From a virus (Duplodnaviria; Heunggongvirae; Uroviricota; Caudoviricetes): a DNA stretch of 26,467 nucleotides. Positions 2,819-16,543 of this stretch are shown here, piece by piece. The notes beneath the pieces were generated by a model. It did no database searches. It was not told the DNA's origin and saw only the letters and a program-made list of their open reading frames with translations. The translations under genes were made by a program, and so were the position numbers. Every line of letters starts with the position of its first letter. Within the stretch, counting starts at the first letter, position 1. The DNA is taken from positions 1 through 26,467 of IMG/VR virus record IMGVR_UViG_2654588181_000005; one strand, given 5' to 3'.

Positions 2819-5462
2819 TTGCATACTCCTTAGCCCAGCGGGGCAGTGATAACGTCTTAATAGCTGGCCATTCATCGGTATTTAGGCAGTCAGCCAGGGT
2901 CCGCAGATTGCGGTGATATTCCTGCTGGCCTGCCAGTTTTGCTTCTTCGCCCATCATGAAAATCTCAACCGGATAACGTCCGCATTCAACAGTTGTGCTG
3001 GCAACCAGAAAAACGAAAGTTGGCTGCACACCAAACTGTGCTTCATAACCGTCACTGTAGAATGCATCCTGAACGTGATAGCGGTAGTCGTAATAAGCCG
3101 TTTTGAATCGTTGAATATCCGCTGTGGTTTTCACGTCCATGATCCAGTGAAATTCAGGAATAATTTTGTCCGGACGGCACCGACACAAAATTCCTGTTTC
3201 CGGATCTTCCCAGTAAATTGATGATTCAGCGTGTCCGGCGCTTTCAACAAGCCATTGCCCCAGCGGCAAAGCCATAACGCTTTGATACATGAGTTCAATT
3301 TTCCGGCCTTCTTCCGCAGTGATAACCGTTTTTCCTGTGCTTGCGCATTCCATCAGAAACGCTTTCTCTTCTTCTTTTCCGGCGTTTGTACGGCGGTTAA
3401 ATTCAGGTGCTACGATAAAGCGGTTACTGAATTCTTCCGGTTCAAGTACCCGGCAGTGGAAAGCGGTTCCTAAATCGAGCGTTTTTGTCTTTGTAGTGTC
3501 CACGGGGGCATTTTTACGCCACAAATACAGTGCCGGAGTATCAGCAATGTCATCGAGCTGAGACTTACTGACACCGGGACCCGCGTGGTAATTCTCATTC
3601 GAAATTCCGTAATAAATACCTGGCTCTATGTCTTCTACGATTACGGGATCTGCGACTTCGCCAGTTTCATCACTGCAATCGCGATGCGGATCGCTGCCAG
3701 CATTCTCATTGTGCGGATGTTCAGCGCCTTCCATTTCCTCCGGATCTTTTTCCTTAGCTTCAACCTGATTCTCTTCACCGAATGTTTCCTGGTATGTTGC
3801 GTCGCCCATCACCGCACCACAGTCAGGGCAGTTATCCCCGCCAGTCTGACCGCAGGCATTGCAGACTATTTCCGGTTCCTGTTGCACTACTGGCTCAGGT
3901 TGTTTCGCATCCGGGCTGATTTTTTCCGTTTCTGGCTGGTTCTGGTACACAGAATCGCGAGTCTGGATCCCCTTAACCCATTTCGGATCGTTCGGGTCGC
4001 TAATTCCGTCAACAAATTCACCACGTGATGCAGCAAGCAATTTATCGGCATCGACAGGATTTTTTGATGGAATGTTTTTCCGGGCTTCCTGGAGTTCTGC
4101 CCGCAGTTCCTGATATTTCGCATCAACAGAATTTACCTGTGACTGAGCATCCAGCGGCTGCGTGTTCTGATGATGTTCAGTTGCATTCGGTTCCACTGTT
4201 TCAGCCGTTGCCTGTTCATCTGCCATTGCGCCAGATGGTTGTGGTTTTTCTTCATCGTCCTGTTTTCCTTCTTCTGTTACTCGCTGCGGCATCGGGGCCG
4301 AGGAGCGACCGCAGGCAATATCCACGATTTCCGGATCAGGGTTGGCATGATCGGTTTCAGTCAGTACTTTGTTCAGATATTCAGTGACGTGTGCGGGGAT
4401 GACCTCGATCCCAATTGGTGCTTCTTTTACGGACGCAACCACGATGGCGCGGGAATAATCCAGCCCACCAGGCATGGTGATGAATTTGTCGCGGAAAACA
4501 GAAAAGGGTGGTTTATTTTCAGCGATAATTTCCTCGACACGTTTAGCGTGTGCCGGATGAAGGTTATAAATGTCCACGTCCATTGAACGAGCCAGTACGC
4601 CAGTGGCTACGTCGCGCGCCAGTGACGTCAGATCGTGAACGAAACCTTCGCCGCGATCGGTGAGGTTCCCGCCGCCAGCATTAGCGCCGGAAGCCGTGCG
4701 CGTGATGCGTGAAACACGATTTCCTTTTCGCCATTCTTTTGTCAGAAGACCGCGATCAATGTGTTCGGTATCCAGCCAGGCTGAAATGAAATTCTTAAAT
4801 TCATAGGGCTGATGTTTTTTCGTGATAGAGAACACTGCCTTAATTGCATCAGTCAGGCGGAGCAGGGCGGCATTATCCAGAGTTGTCGGTTCTGCCATGC
4901 TGCGTATGGCCAACAGCAGATTCTGGACATAGCTGTTTTCCTGATCCATCTCAAGAGCAGTAATGTGTTTGCGTTGTTCACGGGTGGCATGATGCAGGTA
5001 TTTCCGATCCCCGGCTGCATACGTAAAAATGTGCAGAAGACGCTGTGTGAACCGCAAAGTGGCTACAGAGACTTCGCAATCCTGGCAATCCTCGTGGGCG
5101 TCTGCCTGCGCGTTTTCTTCCTGGCCTCCCGCCAGTTCTTTGGTTTCTTGAGCATTATCCTGGTGGTGAACGTCGTCTGGCGCTGCTCCCGGTTTTAGTT
5201 CCCAGGTCATTGAGTCTTTGCTGAGTTGATAGCGTTCACTCCAGGTAAAATCGATCTCACCTTCAGGGGGAAGGTCATTAACGACAGGAAAATTCGTGGC
5301 AACAGGTTTAAAATAGCTGCTCAGTTTTTTACCTGACTTAACGAGCAGGTAGTCCAGAGTGGCACAGGTCGATTCAAAATCGTCGCTTGCCCACAGGACG
5401 ACGTCAGGTTCACCGGATGATTTTTTCGCTTTCCGTAACAGGAAGAGTGGTTTTGTGCTCAT
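2811..5462 (-). CDS. recE: RecE exonuclease VIII
   Basis: 883-aa ORF starting [47 protein letters not shown], typical of Rac RecE; adjacent to recT. Confidence 0.9.
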
Positions 5463-5563
5463 TGTTTTTTAACCTCAACTCAGATTAAAATTCGTTTTGT
5501 TCAGTGAATGATCTTGCCGGATACACACTGTTCATAGCCTGCGTATGGCGCAGGCTATTTCTT

Positions 5564-5839
5564 TCAGATTTCACCGCCTAATTTCATTGCAATCAGAGTT
5601 GCCAGAAATCCGGCTTTTTTTTCTGCGGGCAGATTCTTTCCGATGTGAACCAGGCACATTTTTGTGACACCTTCATCAAGTGTTTTTACGTTGCCTGATG
5701 GACCGTCGATATCAACCACAGTGAATGGGGTTTCTTTATTTTCTGTTTTAATCACGTAGCCAATACGCTTTCCTTCCAGATTAACCTCGTGAACAATGTC
5801 ATCGGTAGTTACAACAGTGGCTTCATAATTGGTAATCAT
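5564..5839 (-). CDS. racC: RacC
   Basis: 91 aa from MITNYEATVVTTDDIVHEVNLEGKRIGYVIKTENK; AGGAGA ribosome-binding site upstream of the ATG at 5839. Confidence 0.8.
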   Translation of the reverse strand: MITNYEATVVTTDDIVHEVNLEGKRIGYVIKTENKETPFTVVDIDGPSGNVKTLDEGVTKMCLVHIGKNLPAEKKAGFLATLIAMKLGGEI

Positions 5840-5913
5840 GTTTTTCTCCTTAATTAAGGTTGAGCGAATCCCTGCCATTGCTGGCATAAATTCAGTTTCG
5901 AATAGTCAGTTAA

Positions 5914-6084
5914 TTAAAGTTCGTGTGCCATCTGGTCTTTTTCGGCACAAATTTCACTACAATATTTTTTCATTTCCGTCGTTGGGATAACTCCACGCAT
6001 GAAATGAAGTGGTCTTTTAATACTTTTGCTTTCTTCAATTTCTTTATTGCAAAGGTGGTAAGCACATTTTATTTTCTTAGTCAT
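5914..6084 (-). CDS. ydaE: YdaE-like small Cys4 protein
   Basis: Hand-translated 56-aa ORF absent from the supplied track (below its length cutoff): [56 protein letters not shown]; its ATG overlaps the kilR TGA by 1 nt. Confidence 0.7.
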   Translation of the reverse strand: MTKKIKCAYHLCNKEIEESKSIKRPLHFMRGVIPTTEMKKYCSEICAEKDQMAHEL

Positions 6085-6305
6085 CACCATGACTCCGCCT
6101 TTACAGGTAAACCATCACGACCGAGGAAGACTTTAATCATGCAGTCAGTAATGCATGTTTTTGTAGTCAGGTTACGAATATAAAGTTTTCGCTTTTTAAT
6201 ATTGTTTGCCGAGGCAATATATGTCCGGCCTTCATGAAGAATATAGTCACCAGGAGTCACACACTGACGTGGTATTTCATCAGTTCCGAAGTGATGTGCA
6301 ATCAT
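6084..6305 (-). CDS. kilR: KilR cell-division inhibitor
   Basis: 73 aa from [51 protein letters not shown] ribosome-binding site before the ATG at 6305. Confidence 0.85.
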
Positions 6306-6725
6306 AATTATCTCCATTTTTACAAATGAACTTTGTTGATGCGGTGCCTAGTGCCTCCAGGTGACTGCAACCAGTTAACAATTACAGTCGGCTTTCCCAC
6401 CCAAACCAATAAGGACTAACATGACTTTTAACTGTGCCGCGTGCGCTTAGCCGCATTCACCGCATCACAAAATTCACTTTAAAAAGGGCGGACATCAGTC
6501 GAACTTCAAGAAAAAACTGATGCCGCCAAGACTACACACAGCAGTGTTGTTATCCACAACCGGAGGCGCACTCCCACCATTTAAATTTAACAGACAAGAC
6601 CGACTCTTTATGGATATCGGAAATGCGACTTCGTGTTGTGCCCGGTTTTATTTCACCACCTCCGGGCTTTGGTGGTTTCTGCTATACCCCTACAGCGAGA
6701 ATATTGAATTAATCCAAATAATGGA

Positions 6726-6878
6726 TTAGCAAGTATTTCTGGCAAGCCAGCGACGTGCGCCCGTTTCAGTTTTGAATGTCTTGCTTTTGGTATACGTCAT
6801 GGCGGTGAACGTTCCATCCTGGTTGGGGAACACGCCGCACACCAGGGATTCGTTATTGCCGAGGTCGATTTTTTGCAT
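6726..6878 (-). CDS. ydaF: Small Rac early protein (YdaF-like, 50 aa)
   Basis: Hand-translated: MQKIDLGNNESLVCGVFPNQDGTFTAMTYTKSKTFKTETGARRWLARNTC; symbol assigned from size and gene order. Confidence 0.55.
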   Translation of the reverse strand: MQKIDLGNNESLVCGVFPNQDGTFTAMTYTKSKTFKTETGARRWLARNTC

Positions 6879-6888
6879 TTTTCGCACC

Positions 6889-7023
6889 TCACATTTTGTT
6901 GTTGCGGATAGAGGCTTCTGCCTGCCAGAGATCCCAGTCGTTGCTGCGTAGAGCCTGTACAGCCTGGCTGTAAGTGATATCGCAACAATCCATCAAATAC
7001 TGAACTACTTCGTAATGCACCAT
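6889..7023 (-). CDS. ydaG: Small Rac early protein (YdaG-like, 44 aa)
   Basis: Hand-translated: MVHYEVVQYLMDCCDITYSQAVQALRSNDWDLWQAEASIRNNKM; symbol assigned from size and gene order. Confidence 0.55.
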   Translation of the reverse strand: MVHYEVVQYLMDCCDITYSQAVQALRSNDWDLWQAEASIRNNKM

Positions 7024-7192
7024 CTTATCTCTCCCCTTAACGCCGGGTGGCGGAACTAACTGCTGCACTGCAAAATTTGAATCCCGCCGTCATGTTCATA
7101 CGCCTCGGGCTGGCTACTTAACCCCTTACCACTGCCTGGTAACTCGAAGTATTGCCCGGCGTTCTGTGGGGCGGGGTGGGTGGTATGCTGGA

Positions 7193-7237
7193 ACTATAGG
7201 TAATGCCTAATTGATTGTCAATAGGCTATGCCTAATG
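7193..7237 (-). promoter_or_regulatory. Leftward early promoter (PL-like) with repressor-operator motifs
   Basis: On the minus strand: -35 TTGACA (7221..7216), 17-bp spacer, -10 TATAGT (7198..7193); ATGCCTAAT motif at 7203-7211 and 7228-7236; contains the 22-mer CATTAGGCATAGCCTATTGACA. Confidence 0.6.
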
Positions 7238-7330
7238 TTTTGGGTGTAACCTAATAGGTGATGGCGACAGGAGAAAGTGATGGGGGGTTAAATAACGGAA
7301 TCCAGGAGTTTTCCGTCAGACCATATAAGT

Positions 7331-7807
7331 TTAAGTTCCAGTTTTTGTGATGTTCTGGCTTTTCCGTTCAGATTCTAGAGCTTTCAGATACTTACCCACT
7401 TTCATTTCCATCGCTGCTATGTAGGCGCGAACATCGTGGTCAACCCAATCTGGTTCTGTAGCATTTCCAGATAACAGGAAAGCTACAATCGCTCTTATTT
7501 CATCAGAGGCTGCTTGATAAAGGTTGTTTATATCTAAAAGTTCACTTTTTGTATCTGAATTGGTGGGGGTTGGTATGGGGTATTCGTTAAGCCCCCAATG
7601 CTCTGGACCAACAACATCAGAAAAGAAACGCCATAATTCTGGAAGTTTATCTTTACTTATGGAGCCTTTCTTAATCCAGTCATAAATTGATGGTGGTTGG
7701 ATTTTGAAGTGGCGTGCGACCTCCGCCTTTGATTTGACGGATCCCGATGCGATTTTTTTGTTAATGGCCTGCTCTATCGCTCGGCCTAAGTCTTTACCAC
7801 TAAGCAT
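7331..7807 (-). CDS. racR: RacR prophage repressor
   Basis: 158 aa starting MLSGKDLGRAIEQAINKKIASGSVKSKAEVARHFKIQPPSIYDWIKKG (HTH); divergent from ydaS. Confidence 0.9.
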   Translation of the reverse strand: MLSGKDLGRAIEQAINKKIASGSVKSKAEVARHFKIQPPSIYDWIKKGSISKDKLPELWRFFSDVVGPEHWGLNEYPIPTPTNSDTKSELLDINNLYQAASDEIRAIVAFLLSGNATEPDWVDHDVRAYIAAMEMKVGKYLKALESERKSQNITKTGT

Positions 7808-7834
7808 TGCTTAATATTCTCCTATGCTCATTGC

Positions 7835-7906
7835 ATTAGGCAATCCCTACCTTTATCGCATTAGGCATAGCCTATTGACATTTATGTTAGGCGTCGCCTA
7901 ATATTT
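7835..7906 (+). promoter_or_regulatory. Rightward early promoter (PR-like) with operators in the racR-ydaS intergenic region
   Basis: -35 TTGACA 7875-7880, 18-bp spacer, -10 TAATAT 7899-7904; ATTAGGCA(A/T) copies at 7835-7843 and 7860-7868; perfect palindrome TTAGGCGTCGCCTAA at 7887-7901. Confidence 0.6.
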
Positions 7907-7930
7907 CTGTGTGTTTTTGGAGTTCATTCG

Positions 7931-8227
7931 ATGAAAAAAGAGAACTATTCATTCAAGCAAGCTTGTGCTGTTGTCGGTGGGCAATCAGCAATGGCTAGGC
8001 TTTTAGGTGTATCACCTCCAAGCGTAAATCAATGGATCAAAGGGGTACGTCAATTGCCTGCCGAGAGATGTCCAGCAATTGAACGAGCAACAAGAGGTGA
8101 GGTTCTGTGCGAAGAGCTTCGTCCTGATATTGACTGGTCATATTTACGACGTTCGGCATGTTGTTCGCAGAATATGTCAGTGAAGCAACTAAATGACAGT
8201 AACAAATCCTCATTTGATCATACCTGA
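7931..8227 (+). CDS. ydaS: YdaS, Cro-like HTH protein
   Basis: 98 aa starting MKKENYSFKQACAVVGGQSAMARLLGVSPPSVNQWIKGVRQLPAERC. Confidence 0.9.
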   Translation: MKKENYSFKQACAVVGGQSAMARLLGVSPPSVNQWIKGVRQLPAERCPAIERATRGEVLCEELRPDIDWSYLRRSACCSQNMSVKQLNDSNKSSFDHT

Positions 8228-8249
8228 AACATCAAGAGGCAAATGATTC

Positions 8250-8672
8250 ATGAAAATCAAGCATGAGCACATCGAATCAGTGTTGTTTGCCCTGGCAGCC
8301 GAAAAAGGGCAGGCATGGGTAGCCAATGCAATTACTGAAGAATATCTGCGCCAGGGGGGCGGCGAATTGCCCCTGGTTCCAGGCAAGGACTGGAACAATC
8401 AGCAGAATATCTATCACCGTTGGTTGAAAGGTGAAACGAAAACGCAAAGAGAAAAAATTCAGAAGCTGATCCCAGCAATTCTGGCAATCCTTCCGCGCGA
8501 GTTGCGTCACCGACTCTGCATCTTCGATACCCTGGAACGCCGTGCATTACTGGCGGCGCAAGAAGCGTTAAGTACGGCAATTGATGCGCATGATGATGCA
8601 GTCCAGGCCGTTTACCGGAAAGCGCATTTCAGCGGCGGTGGTTCGTCCGGCGATTCTGTTGTTGTTCATTAA
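8250..8672 (+). CDS. ydaT: YdaT, toxic Rac protein
   Basis: 140 aa starting MKIKHEHIESVLFALAAEKGQAWVANAITEEYLRQGGG; immediately downstream of ydaS. Confidence 0.85.
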   Translation: MKIKHEHIESVLFALAAEKGQAWVANAITEEYLRQGGGELPLVPGKDWNNQQNIYHRWLKGETKTQREKIQKLIPAILAILPRELRHRLCIFDTLERRALLAAQEALSTAIDAHDDAVQAVYRKAHFSGGGSSGDSVVVH

Positions 8673-8684
8673 GGTGATGTGGTG

Positions 8685-8981
8685 ATGGAAAAATATGAAC
8701 TGAAAAAATACCGACTTAAAACACTGGAAGGCGAAACATTGCTTCAGCGTATAGCCCGAAATGTTGCCTGGTATGCCATACGACTCTCTCTGCATCGCCA
8801 TCTTGTTAACGGGTATCCCTCGTCAACGCTGTTGTTCATCAATATCAAAGATAAAGAAAAAGCCGCAGAACACATTCGGTGGATGGAACTGGCGCAGGGA
8901 CAAGCTCTTGATATTGAGTATGGCGATGAGATCGACTACAGCAAAGCTCAACCGCTGCGCCACGTAATTTTTAGGGGGTGA
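8685..8981 (+). CDS. Hypothetical protein (98 aa), third gene of the ydaS-ydaT operon
   Basis: ATG at 8685, 13 nt after the ydaT stop; product MEKYELKKYRLKTLEGETLLQRIARNVAWYAIRL...; no family recognised. Confidence 0.5.
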   Translation: MEKYELKKYRLKTLEGETLLQRIARNVAWYAIRLSLHRHLVNGYPSSTLLFINIKDKEKAAEHIRWMELAQGQALDIEYGDEIDYSKAQPLRHVIFRG

Positions 8982-9233
8982 TTATGACATCTTTTCTTTT
9001 AGCTTTTGTAGGGCAACGATCAGTTCATCAATTTGGGTTGCATCCATTATCAACTCTAGTTTGTGATAAGCCCCGTAATTTAGCTCCTGTGTGTGGAATT
9101 CCTGGGCAAGTATTTTTACTCCTCCGCGATTGAGCATTCCTGAGGTGCTAAAAATTTTTGACTCGGTTCCAGTAATACTGTCCACCCAAAATTTTTGGGG
9201 GAATGGAGCAGACTTATCAAATGTAAAAGACAT
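8982..9233 (-). CDS. Hypothetical protein (83 aa), convergent with the upstream gene
   Basis: Strong AGGAGG ribosome-binding site about 6 nt before the ATG at 9233; product MSFTFDKSAPFPQKFWVDSITGTESKIF...; its stop codon directly abuts the stop of the 8685-8981 gene. Confidence 0.5.
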   Translation of the reverse strand: MSFTFDKSAPFPQKFWVDSITGTESKIFSTSGMLNRGGVKILAQEFHTQELNYGAYHKLELIMDATQIDELIVALQKLKEKMS

Positions 9234-9312
9234 GTCGAACCTCCTTTGGTTCTGTTGATTGGGGAATCACAGATTATATCCGGAGGAAGGTTCGACACCA
9301 GATGAGGCAATT

Positions 9313-10437
9313 ATGGTTAAGGCTAAAAATATGCCAAATCCCATGCCAAAAACTAAGGCAAACAATGAGCCTTATCGCAAGGTAAAAATAACGATATGGG
9401 ATGATCCCAAATTTAGGGCGTTATCTCCTCTGCCTCCAAGTGGACAGAGTTTGTTTATTTATCTGCTGACCAGTCCATTTACCGGGATTATTCCTGGGTT
9501 GTTTAAAGCCGGGCGGGCAGCAATGGCTGAAGAGTTGGGGTGGGATATCGAAGCCTTTGACTTAGCCTTAGGCGAAGCCATGAATCTTGGCATGGTGAAA
9601 GCAGATATCAAAGCCAGAGTTTTTTGGCTCCCGAATGCTGCGAAACACAATCCGCCAAACTCGATAAATGTCATTAAATCCTGGGCAAAGGCATTCGCTT
9701 TAATTCCTGATTGTCCTCTCAAATGGGAGGCCAGGGAATCGCTGAGAGCCGCGTCCTATGGGGTTTCTGAGGCTTTGGGGATGGCATTCGATAAGGCAAT
9801 CCCTTTGCCTGAGGATAAGCCTAAGGATAAGGCTAACGCTTTGTCATGCGGTATCCAGATAACAGATAACAGATATATAAACCCCACACATAACGCGCGC
9901 GTGCGCGAGAGTGCTCCGGCCAGTGAGGCAAATGGCGTGCCGTTGCAGACAGCGGAACCTGATTACCTGGAAGGCCTGAACGAACCCATCGGGAAATTTC
10001 CGATGACTGATGGCTGGCATCCGTCGCTGGATTTTCGACGGCGGGCAGCTCTGTGGGGAGTGGCTCTGCCGGAGCCGGAATTTACACCAGCTGAACTTGC
10101 CGCCTTCCGGGACTACTGGGCAGCGGAGGGGAAAGTTTTCACGCAGGTTCAGTGGGAGCAGAAATTCGCCCGTCACGTAAATCACGTCAGGGCGCAGGTT
10201 AAACCAGTCAGCAAGGGGGTGAACCATGCAGCAGCACCAGGTGGCACCGCATCACGGGCAGTTCAGGAAATTCGGGCAGCACGTGAGCAGTGGGAACGTG
10301 AAAACGGATTTATCAGCGACGGAAACGGCCTGGAAGTTGTGGGAACTCATGGGGGAGGTTTATTCGAACCGCTGGACCCAGAAGAACGGGGCCGCACCTT
10401 CGAAGCTCTGGATTGCACAGATTGGTGCGATGACTGA
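9313..10437 (+). CDS. Putative replication initiation/primosomal protein (occupies the YdaU/O position)
   Basis: 374 aa from [38 protein letters not shown] 5 nt upstream of the ATG; first gene after the immunity region. The track's start at 9259 is a TTG without a ribosome-binding site. Confidence 0.5.
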
Positions 10438-10891
10438 GCAGCAAATCCGACAGGTCTGCCGCCAGTGCATGGACCGCTGCCGGACGGGTGAAACATGGCC
10501 TCCGGACCTGGCTGAGTTTGTGGCGCTGATTTCGGAAAGCGGGGCCAATCCATTCGGTCTGACGGTGGATGCTGTGATGGAGGAGTACCGACGCTGGCGC
10601 AACAAGTCCTGGCGATACGACGGAAGCGATAAATACCCGTGGTCTCAGCCTGTGCTGTATCACATTTGCCTCGAGATGCGTTCAAAGGGGATTGAGCGCC
10701 AGATGACCGAAGGGGAGTTAAAACGACTTGCAGAACGGCAACTGGCGAAATGGGCAAAGCATGTTGGTGACGGCTTCAGCGTTCCGCCCGTACGGCGGCA
10801 ACTGGCAGCACCAGAACGCCCGTCGGGGCCAACACCAATTGAGTTGCTGAAACAGGAATATGAACGCCGGAAAGCGGCTGGTTTTGTTTGA
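10430..10891 (+). CDS. Hypothetical replication-region protein (153 aa)
   Basis: ATG at 10430 overlaps the upstream TGA by 8 nt (translational coupling); product [34 protein letters not shown]...; no Walker A motif, so not a DnaC-like loader. Confidence 0.45.
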
Positions 10892-10924
10892 GTTGATAAG
10901 TAATTTTACCGGGAGCAAATTTTA

Positions 10925-11686
10925 ATGGAGACTGTTTTTGACGCACTGAAAGCAATGGGAAAAGCCACGTCGGTAGAACTCGCTGCGCGACTTGATATCA
11001 GTCGTGAAGAGGTACTGAACGAGCTGTGGGAACTGAAAAAGGCTGGTTTCGTTGATAAAAGCGTATACACCTGGCGTGTGGCTGATAACAACGTTCAGCA
11101 GGAACAGCCAGAGCAGGCAGAACTGCCGGAAGAAACCACCACAGCAACAGTAGCGAAAATCTCAGAGTGCGATTTAACCGCGACGATTGAACAACGCGGA
11201 CCACAAACGGCTGATGAGCTGGCTACATTGTTTGGTACCACATCACGCAAAGTGGCTTCAACGCTGGCAATGGCAATCAGCAAAGGTCGTCTGATTCGCG
11301 TAAATCAGGGCGGTAAATTTCGTTACTGCATACCGGGCGATAATTTACCAGCAGAGCCGAAAGCAGCATCGGTAGCGGAAACTGATGGTAAGGCTTTTCC
11401 TCAGCCCGCAGGTGTTGCGTTACCAGTACAGGAGGCTGCAACACAGGAAGAAATTAAAACAGATACTGTAGCGGACATTGTGCAGTCGTTGCCATCGTTT
11501 ACCGAAACGCGGGCGGATGATTTGATTTTGCCATCGCTGCATCTGGCAAACCGCAAACTGCGTCGGGCGAAAAGCCATGTCCAGAAGTGGGAGCGTGTCT
11601 GCGCCGCGCTGCGGGAGTTGAACAAGCACCGGGATATTGTTCGCCAGATTACTGATTCTTCCCGCTGTGTTGTATCGGAAAAGTGA
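10925..11686 (+). CDS. Conserved lambdoid-prophage protein (DUF1627-like, as recalled)
   Basis: 253 aa from [46 protein letters not shown], a winged-helix-like N-terminus. Confidence 0.55.
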
Positions 11687-11701
11687 TTGCCGGAGGCGCT
11701 T

Positions 11702-12124
11702 ATGGCAAAAGTATTTACACAAGAAGAGCGGGAAAAAATTAAGGGGCAGGTTGTTGAACTCGTGCGCCAGAATGGGCGCGAGACGTTACGACAACTTGAA
11801 GCTAAGACAGGTGCGACAAGATATTTAATGAGCGTTCTCGCCAGAGAGCTGGTTGCCAGTGGCGATGTATATAACTCCGGCTACGGGCTATTTCCCTCTG
11901 AACAGGCTCGTAAGGACTGGCAAAACGCCCGCAAAAAACTATCGAGGGCAAAGGTGAAGAAACCTGCTGTAGTTGATCCGGACCTTATCTGGTCATTACC
12001 AGACGGAGAAATACGCCGCTATGACAGGCGTCTGAATATAATCTGTCGCGAGTGCCGGAAGAGCGAAGTCATGCAGCGTGTACTGGCGTTCTATCAGGGT
12101 AATTTTCAGGATGTGCTGTTGTGA
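11702..12124 (+). CDS. Hypothetical phage protein (140 aa)
   Basis: GGAGG before the ATG at 11702; product MAKVFTQEEREKIKGQVVELVRQNGRETLRQLEAKTGATRYLMSVLAREL. Confidence 0.5.
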   Translation: MAKVFTQEEREKIKGQVVELVRQNGRETLRQLEAKTGATRYLMSVLARELVASGDVYNSGYGLFPSEQARKDWQNARKKLSRAKVKKPAVVDPDLIWSLPDGEIRRYDRRLNIICRECRKSEVMQRVLAFYQGNFQDVLL

Positions 12125-12228
12125 GCCAAATTAACAATCAGGGAACTGCGTGAACTGAAAGAGAAATCATAATCCAAATCTGAATAATTAAATTTAGCAC
12201 TGTAAATAAAATTTAATCCTTAACCGGA

Positions 12229-12239
12229 GGGGGGGGGGG
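12229..12239. repeat. Homopolymeric G11 tract in an intergenic region
   Basis: Eleven consecutive G at 12229-12239, 47 nt upstream of the ATG at 12286; followed by a GCCC-GAAA-GGGC mini-hairpin. Confidence 0.95.
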
Positions 12240-12285
12240 CACCCTCAAAATATTAGGAGGCGGCCCGAAAGGGCGGTAATGAAAA

Positions 12286-12789
12286 ATGACTGAATTAACC
12301 AAAAAGCAATTAATCGAAGAAGCTAAATTAAAAATAGCGATTGAGAAATGCCACCCCAATTCAGGGATGGCATGGGTAGAGGGCGAATTATTCAAAATTG
12401 CTCTGGCATCTCTGGAAGCAGAGCCAGTTGGTGATTTTTATGAATACAAACCGGATGACTGGTATCAGCGTTCGGCTGGAGATAAAGCGCCAAAAAGGAC
12501 GCCATCCTATGCCGTTTTTCCAGCGCCCGTAGTGCCGGAAGAAATGGATTTGCTTACATGCCATCTCGATGGTGTAACTGAAACATATGCTGAGGGATGG
12601 AACGCTTGCCGCGCTGCCCTGCTTCAGGGCAAAGGGGAGCCCGGGAAACAAGTTCGCGAATTGACAATGCTGGTTAAACAATTGGTTAGTCAACTTAAGA
12701 AAGCGAAACCGGGCTGCAAATTGCCGGATAAAGTGATGGACTACCTGGAGCGAAGCGGACTTATAAGCGTGGAGGATGTTTTACGATGA
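12286..12789 (+). CDS. Hypothetical phage protein (167 aa)
   Basis: Product MTELTKKQLIEEAKLKIAIEKCHPNSGMAWVEGELFKIALASLEAEPVGDFYEYKPDDWYQ...EGWNACRAALLQ; family not confidently recognised. Confidence 0.55.
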   Translation: MTELTKKQLIEEAKLKIAIEKCHPNSGMAWVEGELFKIALASLEAEPVGDFYEYKPDDWYQRSAGDKAPKRTPSYAVFPAPVVPEEMDLLTCHLDGVTETYAEGWNACRAALLQGKGEPGKQVRELTMLVKQLVSQLKKAKPGCKLPDKVMDYLERSGLISVEDVLR

Positions 12790-12869
12790 CCTGGTCTGAA
12801 GCATTCACAACGGTAGGAATTGCGATGGCGGTGGCGCTGGTGGTGTATTCGATTTGCCGCTGGGGTTGA
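12786..12869 (+). CDS. Putative small hydrophobic peptide (27 aa)
   Basis: ATGA start/stop overlap with the upstream gene; product MTWSEAFTTVGIAMAVALVVYSICRWG resembles a single transmembrane helix; followed by a terminator. Confidence 0.3.
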   Translation: MTWSEAFTTVGIAMAVALVVYSICRWG

Positions 12870-12882
12870 TAATACTAAATAA

Positions 12883-12901
12883 CCAGCCCTTATGGGGCTG
12901 G
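12883..12901. terminator. Bidirectional intrinsic terminator between convergent genes
   Basis: CCAGCCC-ttatg-GGGCTGG hairpin, flanked by a T-rich run on the minus-strand side and a weaker one on the plus-strand side. Confidence 0.6.
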
Positions 12902-12909
12902 CTAATCAT

Positions 12910-13683
12910 TTAGAACTGTTCATTGCCATCGAGGTTAGGTAGCATAATTTTTTCAATCAAGGCGAGAGCCTTTTTGTCCCGGTCAGCGAAGTATTTCGGG
13001 GCATATTGCGGCAACCAAATATTGTTAAAATGTTCTTTGAAATCTGCTAAATATTCATTTGGGTACAGCCTTGCAGGGTATACGCGACCATCGGGATATT
13101 CATGGTCATAGGTAGGGAATGTTTTGGGTTCTACGTTTCTATTATCTCTTAACCATTGTGAAAATACTCTTCCTTGTGAAATGTCAGGAACCATTTTTTC
13201 TGGGAGTGTGTACCCTGCTTGTTCAAGAGGTGCAACCAAGTTGAATGTCAGTTCATTAAGAATAGAAAAGTGCGTGTGAGGAATTCTACTACGATTAACC
13301 ATGTACCGTTTTAAATGTACAGGCATTTCTGCTGTAGTTCTTTCCCCTGACATCCATTCACGAACCCATCTTGAAACCTGGACTGCAAATTTGGGCGATA
13401 GCCACTGCGCTAGATTAATAGCGATGTCAGGATGCACCCATGTCCCTTGGTTTTCAGGTCTTCCACCTTTAAATGATTGAATTAACTCCGATATGGGAAT
13501 TCCCATATCGCGTGATAATTCGTCAAAAAACTCTTGAGTAGTTTTGAGTCTAGTGTAATCAGAGAGCAGTTTGCCCGCAGTTCTACACATTGATGTGGCG
13601 TTTATGTAACCATCTTTGGCACGTAAATGTATTATTTCGCCGTCAATTTCACGAGAAATCAAAGATAATTGAAAGGATGTCAT
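12910..13683 (-). CDS. KilA-N domain protein
   Basis: 257 aa; N-terminus IHLRAKDGYINATSMCRTAGKLLSDYTRLKTTQEFFDEL...HPDIAINLAQWLSPKFAVQVSRWV is a classic KilA-N/APSES-type domain; GAGGA ribosome-binding site; C-terminal ~130 aa of unknown function. Confidence 0.75.
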   Translation of the reverse strand: MTSFQLSLISREIDGEIIHLRAKDGYINATSMCRTAGKLLSDYTRLKTTQEFFDELSRDMGIPISELIQSFKGGRPENQGTWVHPDIAINLAQWLSPKFAVQVSRWVREWMSGERTTAEMPVHLKRYMVNRSRIPHTHFSILNELTFNLVAPLEQAGYTLPEKMVPDISQGRVFSQWLRDNRNVEPKTFPTYDHEYPDGRVYPARLYPNEYLADFKEHFNNIWLPQYAPKYFADRDKKALALIEKIMLPNLDGNEQF

Positions 13684-14205
13684 TGAAAATTCCTCAAGTT
13701 GGAGAGTTCTGGAACATTAAGGCGAGGTGGCCGTAATGCACCATCTGTAATCTTTTGATACTGACGTAATCGGGCCTGATGTGCAACGCCTTGCAAGTAT
13801 GTAACTCATTGAAAACGATCATTTTTATCTATTGACATCAAATGGCAAACTGTCATTGTGCGGCTATGGCAAGTGGCAAATGCTTATAAATCATATGGAT
13901 ATAAATAGTACAGAAAGAGTTGTTTTCTCTAGGATATGAGTATACGCCCAATGCTGATTGGTTGAATTTTGTTCTTGTTTTAAAGGGTAAGAGTTTAAAG
14001 TGTTGGCAGTGATGTATTGGATAGTTAGAATTGCTGTGGGTGCTTGAGGCTATCTGCCTCGGGCATGATCACCAAAGGTAGATAGAGAAAAGCCCCAGTT
14101 AACATTACGCGTCCTGCAAGACGTTTAACATTAATCTGAGGCCATATCTATGCGACACATAGAGATTAGCCTCTTACGGACCGAAAGGTCAAGGAGAAGC
14201 AGGCT

Positions 14206-14361
14206 ATGAAGCAGCAAAAGGCGATGTTAATCGCCCTGATCGTCATCTGTTTAACCGTCATAGTGACGGCACTGGTAACGAGGAAAGACCTCTGTGAGGT
14301 ACGAATCCGAACCGGGCAGACGGAGGTCGCTGTCTTCACAGCTTACGAACCTGAGGAGTAA
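14206..14361 (+). CDS. hokD: Hok/Gef-family type I toxin (HokD/RelF-like)
   Basis: 51-aa product MKQQKAMLIALIVICLTVIVTALVTRKDLCEVRIRTGQTEVAVFTAYEPEE; a short upstream ORF (14150-14209) ends overlapping the hok ATG, mok-like. Confidence 0.85.
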   Translation: MKQQKAMLIALIVICLTVIVTALVTRKDLCEVRIRTGQTEVAVFTAYEPEE

Positions 14362-14368
14362 GAGACCG

Positions 14369-14390
14369 GGCGAGGGAGAAATCCCTCGCC
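14369..14390 (+). promoter_or_regulatory. Stable stem-loop in the hok 3' region
   Basis: GGCGAGGGA-GAAA-TCCCTCGCC, a 9-bp stem with GNRA loop, 8 nt after the hok stop; no U-tract follows, so not a classic terminator. Confidence 0.5.
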
Positions 14391-14827
14391 ACCTCTGATG
14401 TATTATGCATCCTCAACGCACCCACACTTAACCAGCTTTGGCGGGTTTATTTTATCTGTAAATATTTTTATAAAAATAATGCCCACGCACAGCATAAAAC
14501 AAAAAGTATTACAGATAAAAAAGGAGCGTAATGTGCAGATTTGTTGTTTTCCATATTTACTCACCTTAATATGATTAATCCTGATAGGGTTGTTATTTCA
14601 GTGGTTTTCAAATGAGATATTATGGTGATCTGGTAGATTTGCATAACATTAAAATTTAATTTGTTTAACCGCTTTTAATAATAAGCGTTGTTTTTATCCC
14701 AGCAATCTGTTGTTTGGTTTTTATTCCATCAATGTGGGGGCTTTACACTGGAGCCAGTTTATTTATACTTCATTCGTCAGCCTGAACAACTGGCATCTGC
14801 TGCACTGCGCCATCGAGAGATTGAGAA

Positions 14828-15427
14828 ATGGCGCATATACAACTGGTCAAACAAACTTCTTCTGGTTTACTTCTCCCGGCGACGCCGGAGAGTTGCGATT
14901 TTCTGCATCAAATCAAAATAGGTGAGTGGATACACGCAGACTTTAAGCGTGTGCGTAACTACGCATTCCACAAGCGTTTTTTCAAACTCCTGCAACTGGG
15001 TTTCGATTACTGGACTCCGGTCGGTGGGGCGATCACGCCTCGCGAACGAAAACTGGTGTCCGGTTTCGTTGATTACCTGTGTGAATCAGTAGGCCGGGAA
15101 CATACGCCAGCTCTGAGCGAAGCCGCAGAGCAATATCTGAATACAGTTGCGACACACAGAACCCGTGATACGGCATTGCTAAAGTTGTTTGAGGCTTTCC
15201 GCGAGTGGGTAACCATTCAGGCCGGATTTTACACCGAGCATATTTATCCGGACGGTAGTCGTGGGCGTCGGGCGAAATCCATCGCGTTTGCGAATATGGA
15301 CGAAACCGAGTTTCAGCAGGTTTATAAATCTGTACTGAATGTGCTGTGGAACTGGATTCTGTTCCGTAAATTTTCCTCTCCGGAACAAGTCGAAAATGTG
15401 GCCGCGCAGCTACTGGAGTTTGCGTAA
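14828..15427 (+). CDS. Conserved lambdoid late-regulatory-region protein (DUF1367-like, as recalled)
   Basis: 199 aa starting MAHIQLVKQTSSGLLLPATPESCDFLHQIKIGEWIHADFKRVRNYAFHKRFF. Confidence 0.55.
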   Translation: MAHIQLVKQTSSGLLLPATPESCDFLHQIKIGEWIHADFKRVRNYAFHKRFFKLLQLGFDYWTPVGGAITPRERKLVSGFVDYLCESVGREHTPALSEAAEQYLNTVATHRTRDTALLKLFEAFREWVTIQAGFYTEHIYPDGSRGRRAKSIAFANMDETEFQQVYKSVLNVLWNWILFRKFSSPEQVENVAAQLLEFA

Positions 15428-15717
15428 TGGTGGATTTACGTAAAGCGGCGCGGGGCCAGATGTGCCAGGTCAGAATCCCTGGCTACTGCAATCACAATCC
15501 CGAAACTTCTGTGCTGGCGCATTACAGGTTGGCGGGAACGTGCGGAACGGCGATAAAGCCACACGATATGCAGGCAGCGATTGCCTGTAGCTCGTGCCAC
15601 GATTTAATCGACGGGCGGGTAAAAACAAGCGATTACACCAAAGAAGAATTACGCCTGATGCATGCAGAAGGTGTTTTTCGCACGCAAGAAATCTGGAGAA
15701 AGGAAGGTTATTTATGA
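15427..15717 (+). CDS. YbcO-like putative nuclease (DUF1364-like, as recalled)
   Basis: 96 aa with Cys/His clusters (CQVRIPGYCNH...CSSCHDL); start overlaps the upstream stop by 1 nt, as in nin-region operons. Confidence 0.55.
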   Translation: MVDLRKAARGQMCQVRIPGYCNHNPETSVLAHYRLAGTCGTAIKPHDMQAAIACSSCHDLIDGRVKTSDYTKEELRLMHAEGVFRTQEIWRKEGYL

Positions 15718-16037
15718 TTTACCCAACAAATACAGGCAAAAGCGGGGAACACCTTCGTCTCACCACGCTGGAAAGTGTCTGGATTCAGGGAAAACTGCGC
15801 ATGTGGGGGCGCTGGTCGTATATTGGCGGCGGTAAGACGGGGAATATGTTCAACCAGTTGTTGGCCTCTAAAAAGCTGACAAAAACGGCAATTAACGAGG
15901 CGCTCCGGAGGATGAAAAAAGCAGGTCTGAACAAGTCTGAACTTGAGGCTTTTTTGCGGGATATGATTAACGGTAAGCAAAAGAGCTGGCTGGCGCATTG
16001 TACTGATGCAGAGGCGTTATATCCCCGGCGTTTATGA
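15714..16037 (+). CDS. Possible antiterminator Q-like protein N-terminal part (frame-disrupted?)
   Basis: ATGA overlap with the upstream gene; GGAAGG ribosome-binding site; LRMWGRWSYIGGG resembles the LERWGAWAAN motif of QuuD-type Q proteins; the ORF ends at 16037 while a second frame continues from 16006. Confidence 0.35.
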   Translation: MIYPTNTGKSGEHLRLTTLESVWIQGKLRMWGRWSYIGGGKTGNMFNQLLASKKLTKTAINEALRRMKKAGLNKSELEAFLRDMINGKQKSWLAHCTDAEALYPRRL

Positions 16038-16425
16038 CAACCTTGAGCGCCTCGCGAAATTATGCCGTCCGCGTCTGGGCAGCCAGGGAATTTTTATGGA
16101 AGACGCCGCGATGGGGGCAATCCTCAACCAGAAGGCGGAAACCGAAGGCTGGGATATGACGCCGATTAAATCGGCACTAACCAGCAAGGGCAAAGACGAA
16201 CGGGCGGTGATGGCATCCAGCTACCACTATCAGGGGATGTGCAAAATCGTCCGGGAGGCTTACGACAAGACCGTTTCATTCAAGCGCACCACCGCAAACC
16301 ACCTCATAAAACAAATCGCCGGATTCCACCTGGCGGATAAAGACGCGCATAAACGTGCTGATGACCTTTTCGATTGTTACACCTATGGATTGATCATCGC
16401 GCACGGTAATTACGCGGAGTTGTAA
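16006..16425 (+). CDS. Hypothetical ORF (139 aa), possibly the downstream half of a frameshifted gene or a nuclease-fold remnant
   Basis: Overlaps the previous ORF by 32 nt in a different frame; C-terminus HKRADDLFDCYTYGLIIAHG resembles the terminal acidic motif of RNase H-fold nucleases; no convincing ribosome-binding site at 16006. Confidence 0.3.
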   Translation: MQRRYIPGVYDNLERLAKLCRPRLGSQGIFMEDAAMGAILNQKAETEGWDMTPIKSALTSKGKDERAVMASSYHYQGMCKIVREAYDKTVSFKRTTANHLIKQIAGFHLADKDAHKRADDLFDCYTYGLIIAHGNYAEL

Positions 16426-16543
16426 AAATCAGGATATTTTTGATGGCAGAGATCGAGATTACTGGCGGCCTCGGTTCAGCACTGATGCATATTCTTGAGG
16501 CTGAAGAAATTCAGCCGGGAGAGGCGATATCAGATGTGGTGAT

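Follow-up and report, generated by a model that had tools for sequence, protein, structure and literature searches.

Phase variation through homopolymeric tracts is described for the poly-C/G tracts of Bordetella pertussis and the promoter tracts of Neisseria meningitidis (PMC1891110, PMC6389960, PMC5084427). A contingency locus of this class carries a tract of hypermutable length (about 7–9 or more G/C residues), lies in frame within an open reading frame (ORF) or between the −35 and −10 elements of a promoter, and differs in length among close isolates. Kunkel and Soni reportedly described transient-misalignment ('dislocation') mutagenesis, which acts where homopolymer runs end, in 1988. Its hallmark is that a base adjacent to a run is replaced by the base of which the run consists. 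Comparative work on HK97/HK022 and HK620 is said to have identified conserved gene-boundary ('linker') sequences in mosaic lambdoid phages. Genes 38 and 25 of phage T4 use split initiation, in which the Shine-Dalgarno (SD) sequence lies 22–27 nt from the start codon and a stable hairpin between the two reduces the effective spacing to 5–11 nt, as was shown experimentally (Nivinskas et al. 1999; Malys and Nivinskas 2009; reviewed in PMC3014915).

The locus described here is a run of eleven G residues in a 26,467-nt stretch of viral DNA (IMG/VR record IMGVR_UViG_2654588181_000005), the whole of which is referred to as the window. The run resembles the phase-variable tracts only in its instability, and is a hypermutable simple repeat. 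As in Bordetella and Neisseria, a long G/C run is present near the 5' end of a gene, its length differs between near-identical isolates, and slipped-strand mispairing is the obvious source of alleles that differ by one base. In contrast to those tracts, the E. coli tract lies neither in an ORF nor between a −35 and a −10 element and has no known expression phenotype; the host is mismatch-repair-proficient and the alleles are stable within clones; run-extending substitutions are found as well as length changes; and the run is a recent derivative of non-repetitive sequence rather than a conserved design feature.

The window represents a Rac-like lambdoid prophage of Escherichia coli that is defective. 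Positions 5166–16020 are 99.78% identical over 10.9 kb to the prophage located beside ttcA in E. coli A17. The A17 prophage carries intR, xisR, ralR, recT, recE, kilR, racR and ydaS/ydaT, together with DnaT-like and P-like replication genes and DUF1627 and DUF977 genes. Approximately 7.1 kb of the A17 prophage is missing from the window, where a Q-like DUF1133 gene is joined near position 16018 to the 3' end of the terminase gene (16018–16520). The missing segment includes the rest of the Q-like gene, the lysis genes, a ParB-like gene, the small terminase and most of the large terminase, and this loss indicates that the prophage is defective. The only Rfam matches across the window were RalA, the antitoxin sRNA of RalR (1557–1735; 218 bits), and sok (14038–14208; 101 bits), the latter beside a hok-type ORF, and the prophage thus has two type I toxin-antitoxin loci. 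The right arm also contains two cargo-like genes of low GC content (0.34–0.38), at 18234–19409 and 24893–26221, which encode a 391-aa protein with a type I restriction HSDR_N domain and a 442-aa YadA-like trimeric autotransporter adhesin, respectively.

The G11 run (GGGGGGGGGGG) occupies positions 12229–12239 on the plus strand, with CCGGA on its 5' side and CACCCTC on its 3' side. The last G is 47 nt upstream of the A of the ATG at 12286 (46 nt in between), and the position given in the first-pass annotation was thereby confirmed in the sequence. The run is the sole homopolymer of nine or more bases in the 26.5-kb window. A run of G11 or C11 was present in only one of 100 dinucleotide-preserving shuffles (mean of 0.02 per shuffle), and since shuffling almost never produces such a run, it is not a chance feature. 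The second-longest homopolymer is a T8 run at 5615–5622, within a racC-like ORF (5564–5887, minus strand); A17 has T7 at this site and its gene is annotated as frameshifted, which represents a second homopolymer length difference between near-identical prophages.

The run is present in a 161-nt gap (12125–12285) between a DUF977/Ren-like gene, which ends at 12124, and a gene encoding a 167-aa protein, both on the plus strand. The tract is intergenic and in no reading frame, and the gap is AT-rich on the 5' side of the tract. A consensus scan found no terminator-like site between the DUF977 gene and the tract. As no terminator follows the upstream early-operon genes, the tract would most simply be part of a read-through intercistronic leader in the early-right polycistronic RNA. 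The 167-aa gene (12286–12789, plus strand) is an accessory gene of the early-right block and belongs to phrog_660, a family of unknown function; no match to its product was found among Pfam, NCBIfam, PADLOC or PDB sequences, and 236 index blocks list the identical protein. An ORF for a 27-aa hydrophobic peptide (MTWSEAFTTVGIAMAVALVVYSICRWG; 12786–12869, plus strand) overlaps the stop codon of the 167-aa gene through ATGA. Relatives with DNA identity as low as 90% retain the peptide ORF, in which S/P and TT/VA variants are seen; in one related locus (L153) it is annotated as a 27-aa gene. A GC-rich stem-loop at 12880–12904, scored as a terminator on the minus strand, separates these two genes from a convergent KilA-N/BstA-like gene (12910–13683, minus strand). 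The KilA-N protein matched phrog_6287 (2.7e-89) and PADLOC BstA (3e-21), identical proteins carry the Pfam domain BstA_C, and 5,882 index blocks list the exact protein sequence. BstA proteins are encoded by prophages and act in defence through abortive infection (PMC8585504).

The homologous segment was present in 107 of 5,426 complete E. coli genomes, and three alleles covered all 107: G7CTG in 10, G8CTG in 85 and G9CTG in 12. These counts were obtained with exact 89–91-nt queries after the subtraction of approximately 18 partial matches. Two of the 12 G9 genomes had an A>G change within CACCCTC. The same alleles were found at 17 IMG/VR loci (G7CTG at seven, G8CTG at eight, G9CTG at two) and on five metagenome contigs (one, three and one, respectively). 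A pure G run was absent from the 107 complete genomes, the 17 IMG/VR loci and the five metagenome contigs, and the window has GGG in place of the CTG of all of these. The lineage-specific pattern had no match in a collection holding one genome per species, and that sampling accounts for the null result. Alleles were shared within clones: three ST2747 genomes have G7, KN12-1 and KN13-4 have G9, and a large near-identical set has G8. This clone-wide sharing argues against very fast switching.

The closest relatives were defined as the contigs encoding exactly the 167-aa, DUF977 and KilA-N proteins of the window, and were compared over window positions 10816–13694 (2.88 kb). Outside the tract, L150 and L168 had no differences from the window and carried G7CTG, L151 had one difference and carried G7CTG, L164 had one difference and carried G8CTG, L152 had one difference and carried G8TG, and L165 had no differences and carried a pure G10; the window, as the reference, carries a pure G11. 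A further contig, L166, also has G8TG, in a background in which the upstream flank is recombinant. Five alleles (G7CTG, G8CTG, G8TG, G10 and G11) are therefore found within near-identical DNA with 0–1 SNP per 2.88 kb, and at least four events fall inside 11 nt, as against three SNPs across approximately 2,870 nt. The site is hypervariable and mutates far faster than its surroundings. The first-pass annotation had described the tract as prone to slipped-strand mispairing, and had suggested that its length be compared between isolates. Instability of the tract was borne out both by these prophages and by the G7/G8/G9 split over the 107 genomes, and the length was found to vary between isolates rather than to be invariant. 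Both the G11 of the window and the G7–G10 runs of its relatives are of the hypermutable length typical of contingency loci, and the tract differs in length among close isolates, with sequencing error possible for single alleles.

The exact length in the window could be a sequencing or assembly artefact, the true state being G7CTG (as in L150 and L168) or G10 (as in L165), with the two substitutions and/or the extra G arising from base-calling errors at the homopolymer. We regard this as unlikely, although well short of negligible. Over the 2.88 kb compared, the tract alone distinguishes the window from L150 and L168, through two substitutions and one insertion. Pure G11 was found in the window only, with none in the 107 complete genomes, the 17 IMG/VR loci, the five metagenome contigs or approximately 20 looked-up contigs. 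The window and A17 differ by just two indels over 10.9 kb, both of them homopolymeric, and the 2.07-Mb length of the G10 contig suggests a long-read assembly, in which homopolymer errors are common. However, intermediates are present in independent assemblies, namely G8TG in L152 (a 227-kb contig) and in the recombinant L166, and pure G10 in L165; these form a coherent mutational series with the window, and run-extending substitutions are a known, genuine class of mutation. While part of the allele differences may be sequencing errors rather than mutations, we took the allele series across these assemblies to be mostly real. An artefact in the window would in any case be compatible with a mutational hot spot, which concerns the site and not a single allele.

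The first-pass annotation had further proposed that the tract could vary promoter spacing or 5' UTR structure, as a phase-variation-like switch for the downstream gene and its coupled peptide. An effect on promoter spacing would require the tract to separate the −35 element from the −10 element of the promoter that drives the 167-aa gene, with promoter strength differing between G10, G11 and G12. The AT-rich sequence 5' of the tract is in keeping with such a promoter, as is the moron-like layout of a gene pair followed by a stem-loop. However, the consensus scan found no promoter-like site in 12125–12285 at the threshold of the tool, and no −35/−10 pair spanning 12229–12239 was found even at a lax 7/12 matches with spacers of 15–19. 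All weak candidates in the lax scan were clear of the tract, lying upstream of 12213 on the plus strand and downstream of 12249 on the minus strand, and the tract flanks (CCGGAG and CACCCTC) are unlike promoter hexamers. With the tract neither in frame in an ORF nor placed between a −35 and a −10 element, the position typical of a contingency locus is not found here. A promoter-spacing role, which would require a sigma-70-like pair straddling the tract, was not borne out and is extremely improbable. The broader proposal of a phase-variation-like switch is likewise not supported, as there is no straddling promoter and the natural alleles differing by one base are predicted to fold alike.

Between approximately 12168 and the start codon, the gap corresponds to a conserved ~110-nt leader module that precedes at least five unrelated small genes in many enterobacterial prophages. 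Phages of the Rac, Stx-converting, mEp460 and P1-like types carry the module, as does one deposited under the name of an Actinobacillus phage. A pattern scan of IMG/VR gave more than 140 copies, a lower bound from the matches listed, and the module was also seen in L018–L140. Among 5,426 complete E. coli genomes, 934 (~17%) have a match of at least approximately 84% identity across 90 nt. The consensus sequence, CTGAATAATTAAATTTAGCACTGTAAATAAAATTTAATCCTTAACCGGAGGGATTTCTGCACCCTCAGAACATCAGGAGGCCGCCCGAAAGGGCGGTAATGAAA-ATG, is always oriented toward the start codon and is followed by at least five unrelated N-termini (MRKFKI, MTELTK/MAELTK, MVTLFR/MTTLFR, IIME and MQEIKE). At the position of the run, the module family has GGGATTTCTG in 85 copies, TGGATTTCTG in 15 and GGGATTCCTG in 13 among the matches listed. 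The G-run lineage also differs from the family by a change of CAGAACATCAGG to CAAAATATTAGG and by a hairpin arm changed from CCGCCC to CGGCCC. Rfam 15 gave no match at 12000–13000 up to E = 10 except chance miRNA matches at the terminator. Literature text searched with the module sequence strings returned just unrelated primer matches, and the literature on lambdoid boundary sequences yielded nothing specific to the module.

Two parts and a junction make up the module in the window. Part A (12168–12230, plus strand) is an AT-rich linker with stops in all frames that ends in AATCCTTAACCGGAGG, the junction remnant CACCCTCAAAATATT (12240–12254, plus strand) includes a CCCTC capable of pairing with either the G run or GAGGG, and part B consists of an AGGAGG SD sequence (12255–12260, plus strand), a hairpin and the start codon. 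The predicted GNRA-loop hairpin of part B, GCGGCCC-GAAA-GGGCGGU (12260–12277, plus strand), is weakened by a G.G mismatch. A 70-aa ORF (MLNTQKTINAEKYNEWVKKF...SYHND; MLNTQK start) is flanked by parts A and B in three other loci (L019 2510–2816; L024 230–530; L034 2373–2655, minus strand). In these loci part A is the ribosome-binding site of the 70-aa gene, with GGAGG-TATATCT-ATG, and part B follows the stop codon of that gene. The GGAGG of part A, a working SD of the 70-aa gene in other phages, is an orphan in the window, where its G residues merge into the run, and the run aligns with the SD-to-start spacer of the 70-aa ORF. Because the halves flank that gene elsewhere, we read the composite module as a deletion scar: it would consist of two ribosome-binding units fused by loss of the 70-aa gene, an interpretation built on short alignments. 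A covariance-model search of 0.93 Mb of loci found no full copies of the module that were more divergent, and revealed separate half-modules, which prompted the deletion-scar interpretation. The conservation of the composite module (88% mean column identity) exceeds the expectation for junk sequence, which weighs against a neutral relic, although recent horizontal spread could explain it. As with the lambdoid linkers, a short and highly conserved intergenic sequence is common to phages with differing flanking genes, and the module occurs in both nin-type and ea-type accessory regions. It differs from those linkers in being readable as two ribosome-binding cassettes fused by gene deletion.

Part B looks like a split initiation region of the T4 gene 38/25 type. 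The SD at 12255–12260 lies 25 nt 5' of the ATG at 12286 when measured linearly, beyond a limit of approximately 15 nt, and the predicted hairpin would give an effective spacing within the approximately 5–11 nt range. Across the family, the linear SD-to-AUG spacing of 22–27 nt is too long, and becomes 6–9 nt with the hairpin formed. The module shares with the T4 genes an AGGAGG followed by a 16–18-nt GNRA hairpin, and the start codon lies 6–9 nt (6, 7 or 9) past the 3' arm in 127 of the 136 copies among the matches listed. The hairpin loop is GAAA, and sometimes GGCA. The predicted stability was −11.2 kcal/mol (z −2.3) for the hairpin of the window and −15.5 kcal/mol (z −3.8) for the consensus CCGCCC-GAAA-GGGCGG. 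In the covariation analysis 95.9% of cells were paired, with changes that were mostly one-sided (G-U) and one double change; this was no better than column shuffles, in a test that had no power, and the outer leader helices were invariant across module copies. In contrast to the T4 regions, the module belongs to a different phage group (lambdoid and P1-like prophages), a single cassette is placed before many unrelated genes, the hairpin in the lineage of the window is mismatched, and the G run lies outside the unit, 16 nt 5' of the SD. A four-codon mini-ORF (ATG AAA AAT GAC TGA; 12279–12293, plus strand) overlaps the main start, beginning 2 nt past the hairpin and stopping just beyond the main ATG. 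Translational coupling between this mini-ORF and the main ORF is conceivable, as is mere coincidence.

The effect of the tract on the leader RNA was predicted with a transcript covering window positions 12125–12330 (−161 to +45 from the start codon). The G7CTG, G8CTG and G9CTG alleles had the same predicted minimum-energy fold, with a mean unpaired probability of the SD of 0.34, 0.36 and 0.37, respectively. In the predicted fold of these alleles, a helix between GGGGCUG and the lineage-specific CGGCCC encloses the SD. Thermodynamic prediction for the pure G10, G11 and G12 alleles removed this helix and raised the unpaired probability to 0.50–0.53. The fold predictions are of modest reliability; the common variation of one base is probably silent, and a plausible effect is confined to the CTG>GGG change. 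The ViennaRNA G-quadruplex option drew a two-tetrad form for both G8CTG and G11, and a G-quadruplex was discarded as a candidate since it did not discriminate between them.

These predictions bear on translational phase variation, in which altered length or composition of the tract would refold the leader transcript or generate an SD that acts as a decoy or standby site (GGAGGGGG...), such that the 167-aa gene and its coupled 27-aa peptide would be switched between levels heritably and reversibly. The tract is hypervariable among near-identical prophages, and the hairpin arm specific to the G-tract lineage (CCGCCC>CGGCCC) is complementary to GGGGCUG, giving the predicted alternative helix around the SD. 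Loss of this helix in the pure-G alleles would raise the predicted SD accessibility from 0.35 to 0.53, and a G8 replacement has arisen independently in L078. Against this, the common natural alleles (G7, G8 and G9 with CTG) are predicted to be equivalent, and the alleles are stable within clones, including those of ST2747, the KN12-1 and KN13-4 pair and the many near-identical G8 genomes. The leader of the window folded no better than shuffled sequence (z −0.63), and the covariation was not significant. Active mismatch repair in E. coli keeps slippage rates at G7–G9 low. The odds of a true contingency switch are lowered by this repair, by the location of the gene in an early operon of the prophage, for which repression would be expected in lysogens, and by the prophage being defective. 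Translational phase variation is, on balance, improbable. A related proposal is a long shot, namely that the ~110-nt leader is an undescribed cis-acting translational control cassette of lambdoid/P1-like prophage accessory genes, in which the poly-G makes a mutable tuner; run length and the CTG>GGG change would shift the balance between an SD-sequestering and an SD-exposing fold.

With moderate confidence, we favour the explanation of a lineage-specific and self-extending mutational hot spot, probably neutral or nearly so, in a non-coding relic of an intercistronic leader. The run is a derived, lineage-specific state, and other homologues of the 167-aa gene (with MTELTK/MAELTK starts) have the normal module. 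In the sub-lineage of the window, the 10 nt 3' of the orphan SD (GGGATTTCTG in the wider family) would have given rise to G7–9CTG, and the former SD-to-start spacer of a lost gene would be a natural place for relaxed constraint. The G7–9 runs would slip by one base, and their 3' neighbours would be converted to G (C>G, then T>G), lengthening the run in the pattern of transient-misalignment mutagenesis. The series G7CTG, G8TG, G10 and G11 would then comprise two run-extending substitutions and one single-base slip. The alleles themselves are observed; we infer their order and the mechanism. The process would accelerate once begun, because longer runs slip more. The likeness to dislocation mutagenesis is that a run-adjacent base becomes the base of the run (G7-C>G8, then G8-T-G>G10); the difference is that the process is deduced here from an allele series across assemblies, which sequencing error could mimic. 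Quasi-palindrome correction was considered as a source of the CTG>GGG change and rejected on inspection, as templating by the right arm CACCCTC would yield GAGGGTG and not extra G residues.

Under the hot-spot explanation, the downstream SD and hairpin would serve the 167-aa gene. As the run lies outside both a promoter spacer and a reading frame, and these downstream elements would serve the gene, length changes are expected to have little effect on its expression. The pure-G alleles could be functionally different from the CTG alleles, since loss of the CTG raises the predicted SD accessibility and abolishes the GGGGCUG:CGGCCC helix. In L078 (10027–10106, minus strand), an independent pure G8 replaces GGGATTTCTG upstream of a different gene (MRKFKI...), in a module whose hairpin is CUGUCC-GGCA-GGGCGG. 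This second all-G replacement hints that G-richness may be favoured rather than accidental.

If the alleles changed expression, this would be an unusual E. coli repeat switch, and its target would be a prophage gene that neighbours a BstA-like defence gene. Were the leader a tunable cassette, it would provide heritable and reversible expression variation of the 167-aa gene and its coupled membrane peptide, and would add to the few instances in which phase variation in E. coli is mediated by a repeat. The analysis also yielded, as a by-product, an unannotated and very widespread candidate hairpin-bridged ribosome-binding cassette that is absent from Rfam and is arguably more interesting than the run. 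If the run is a hot spot only, it would represent a small natural case of run lengthening through conversion of neighbouring bases, and a caution that homopolymer alleles in prophage intergenic DNA, which vary among genomes that are otherwise identical, should be read neither as phylogenetic signal nor as regulation.
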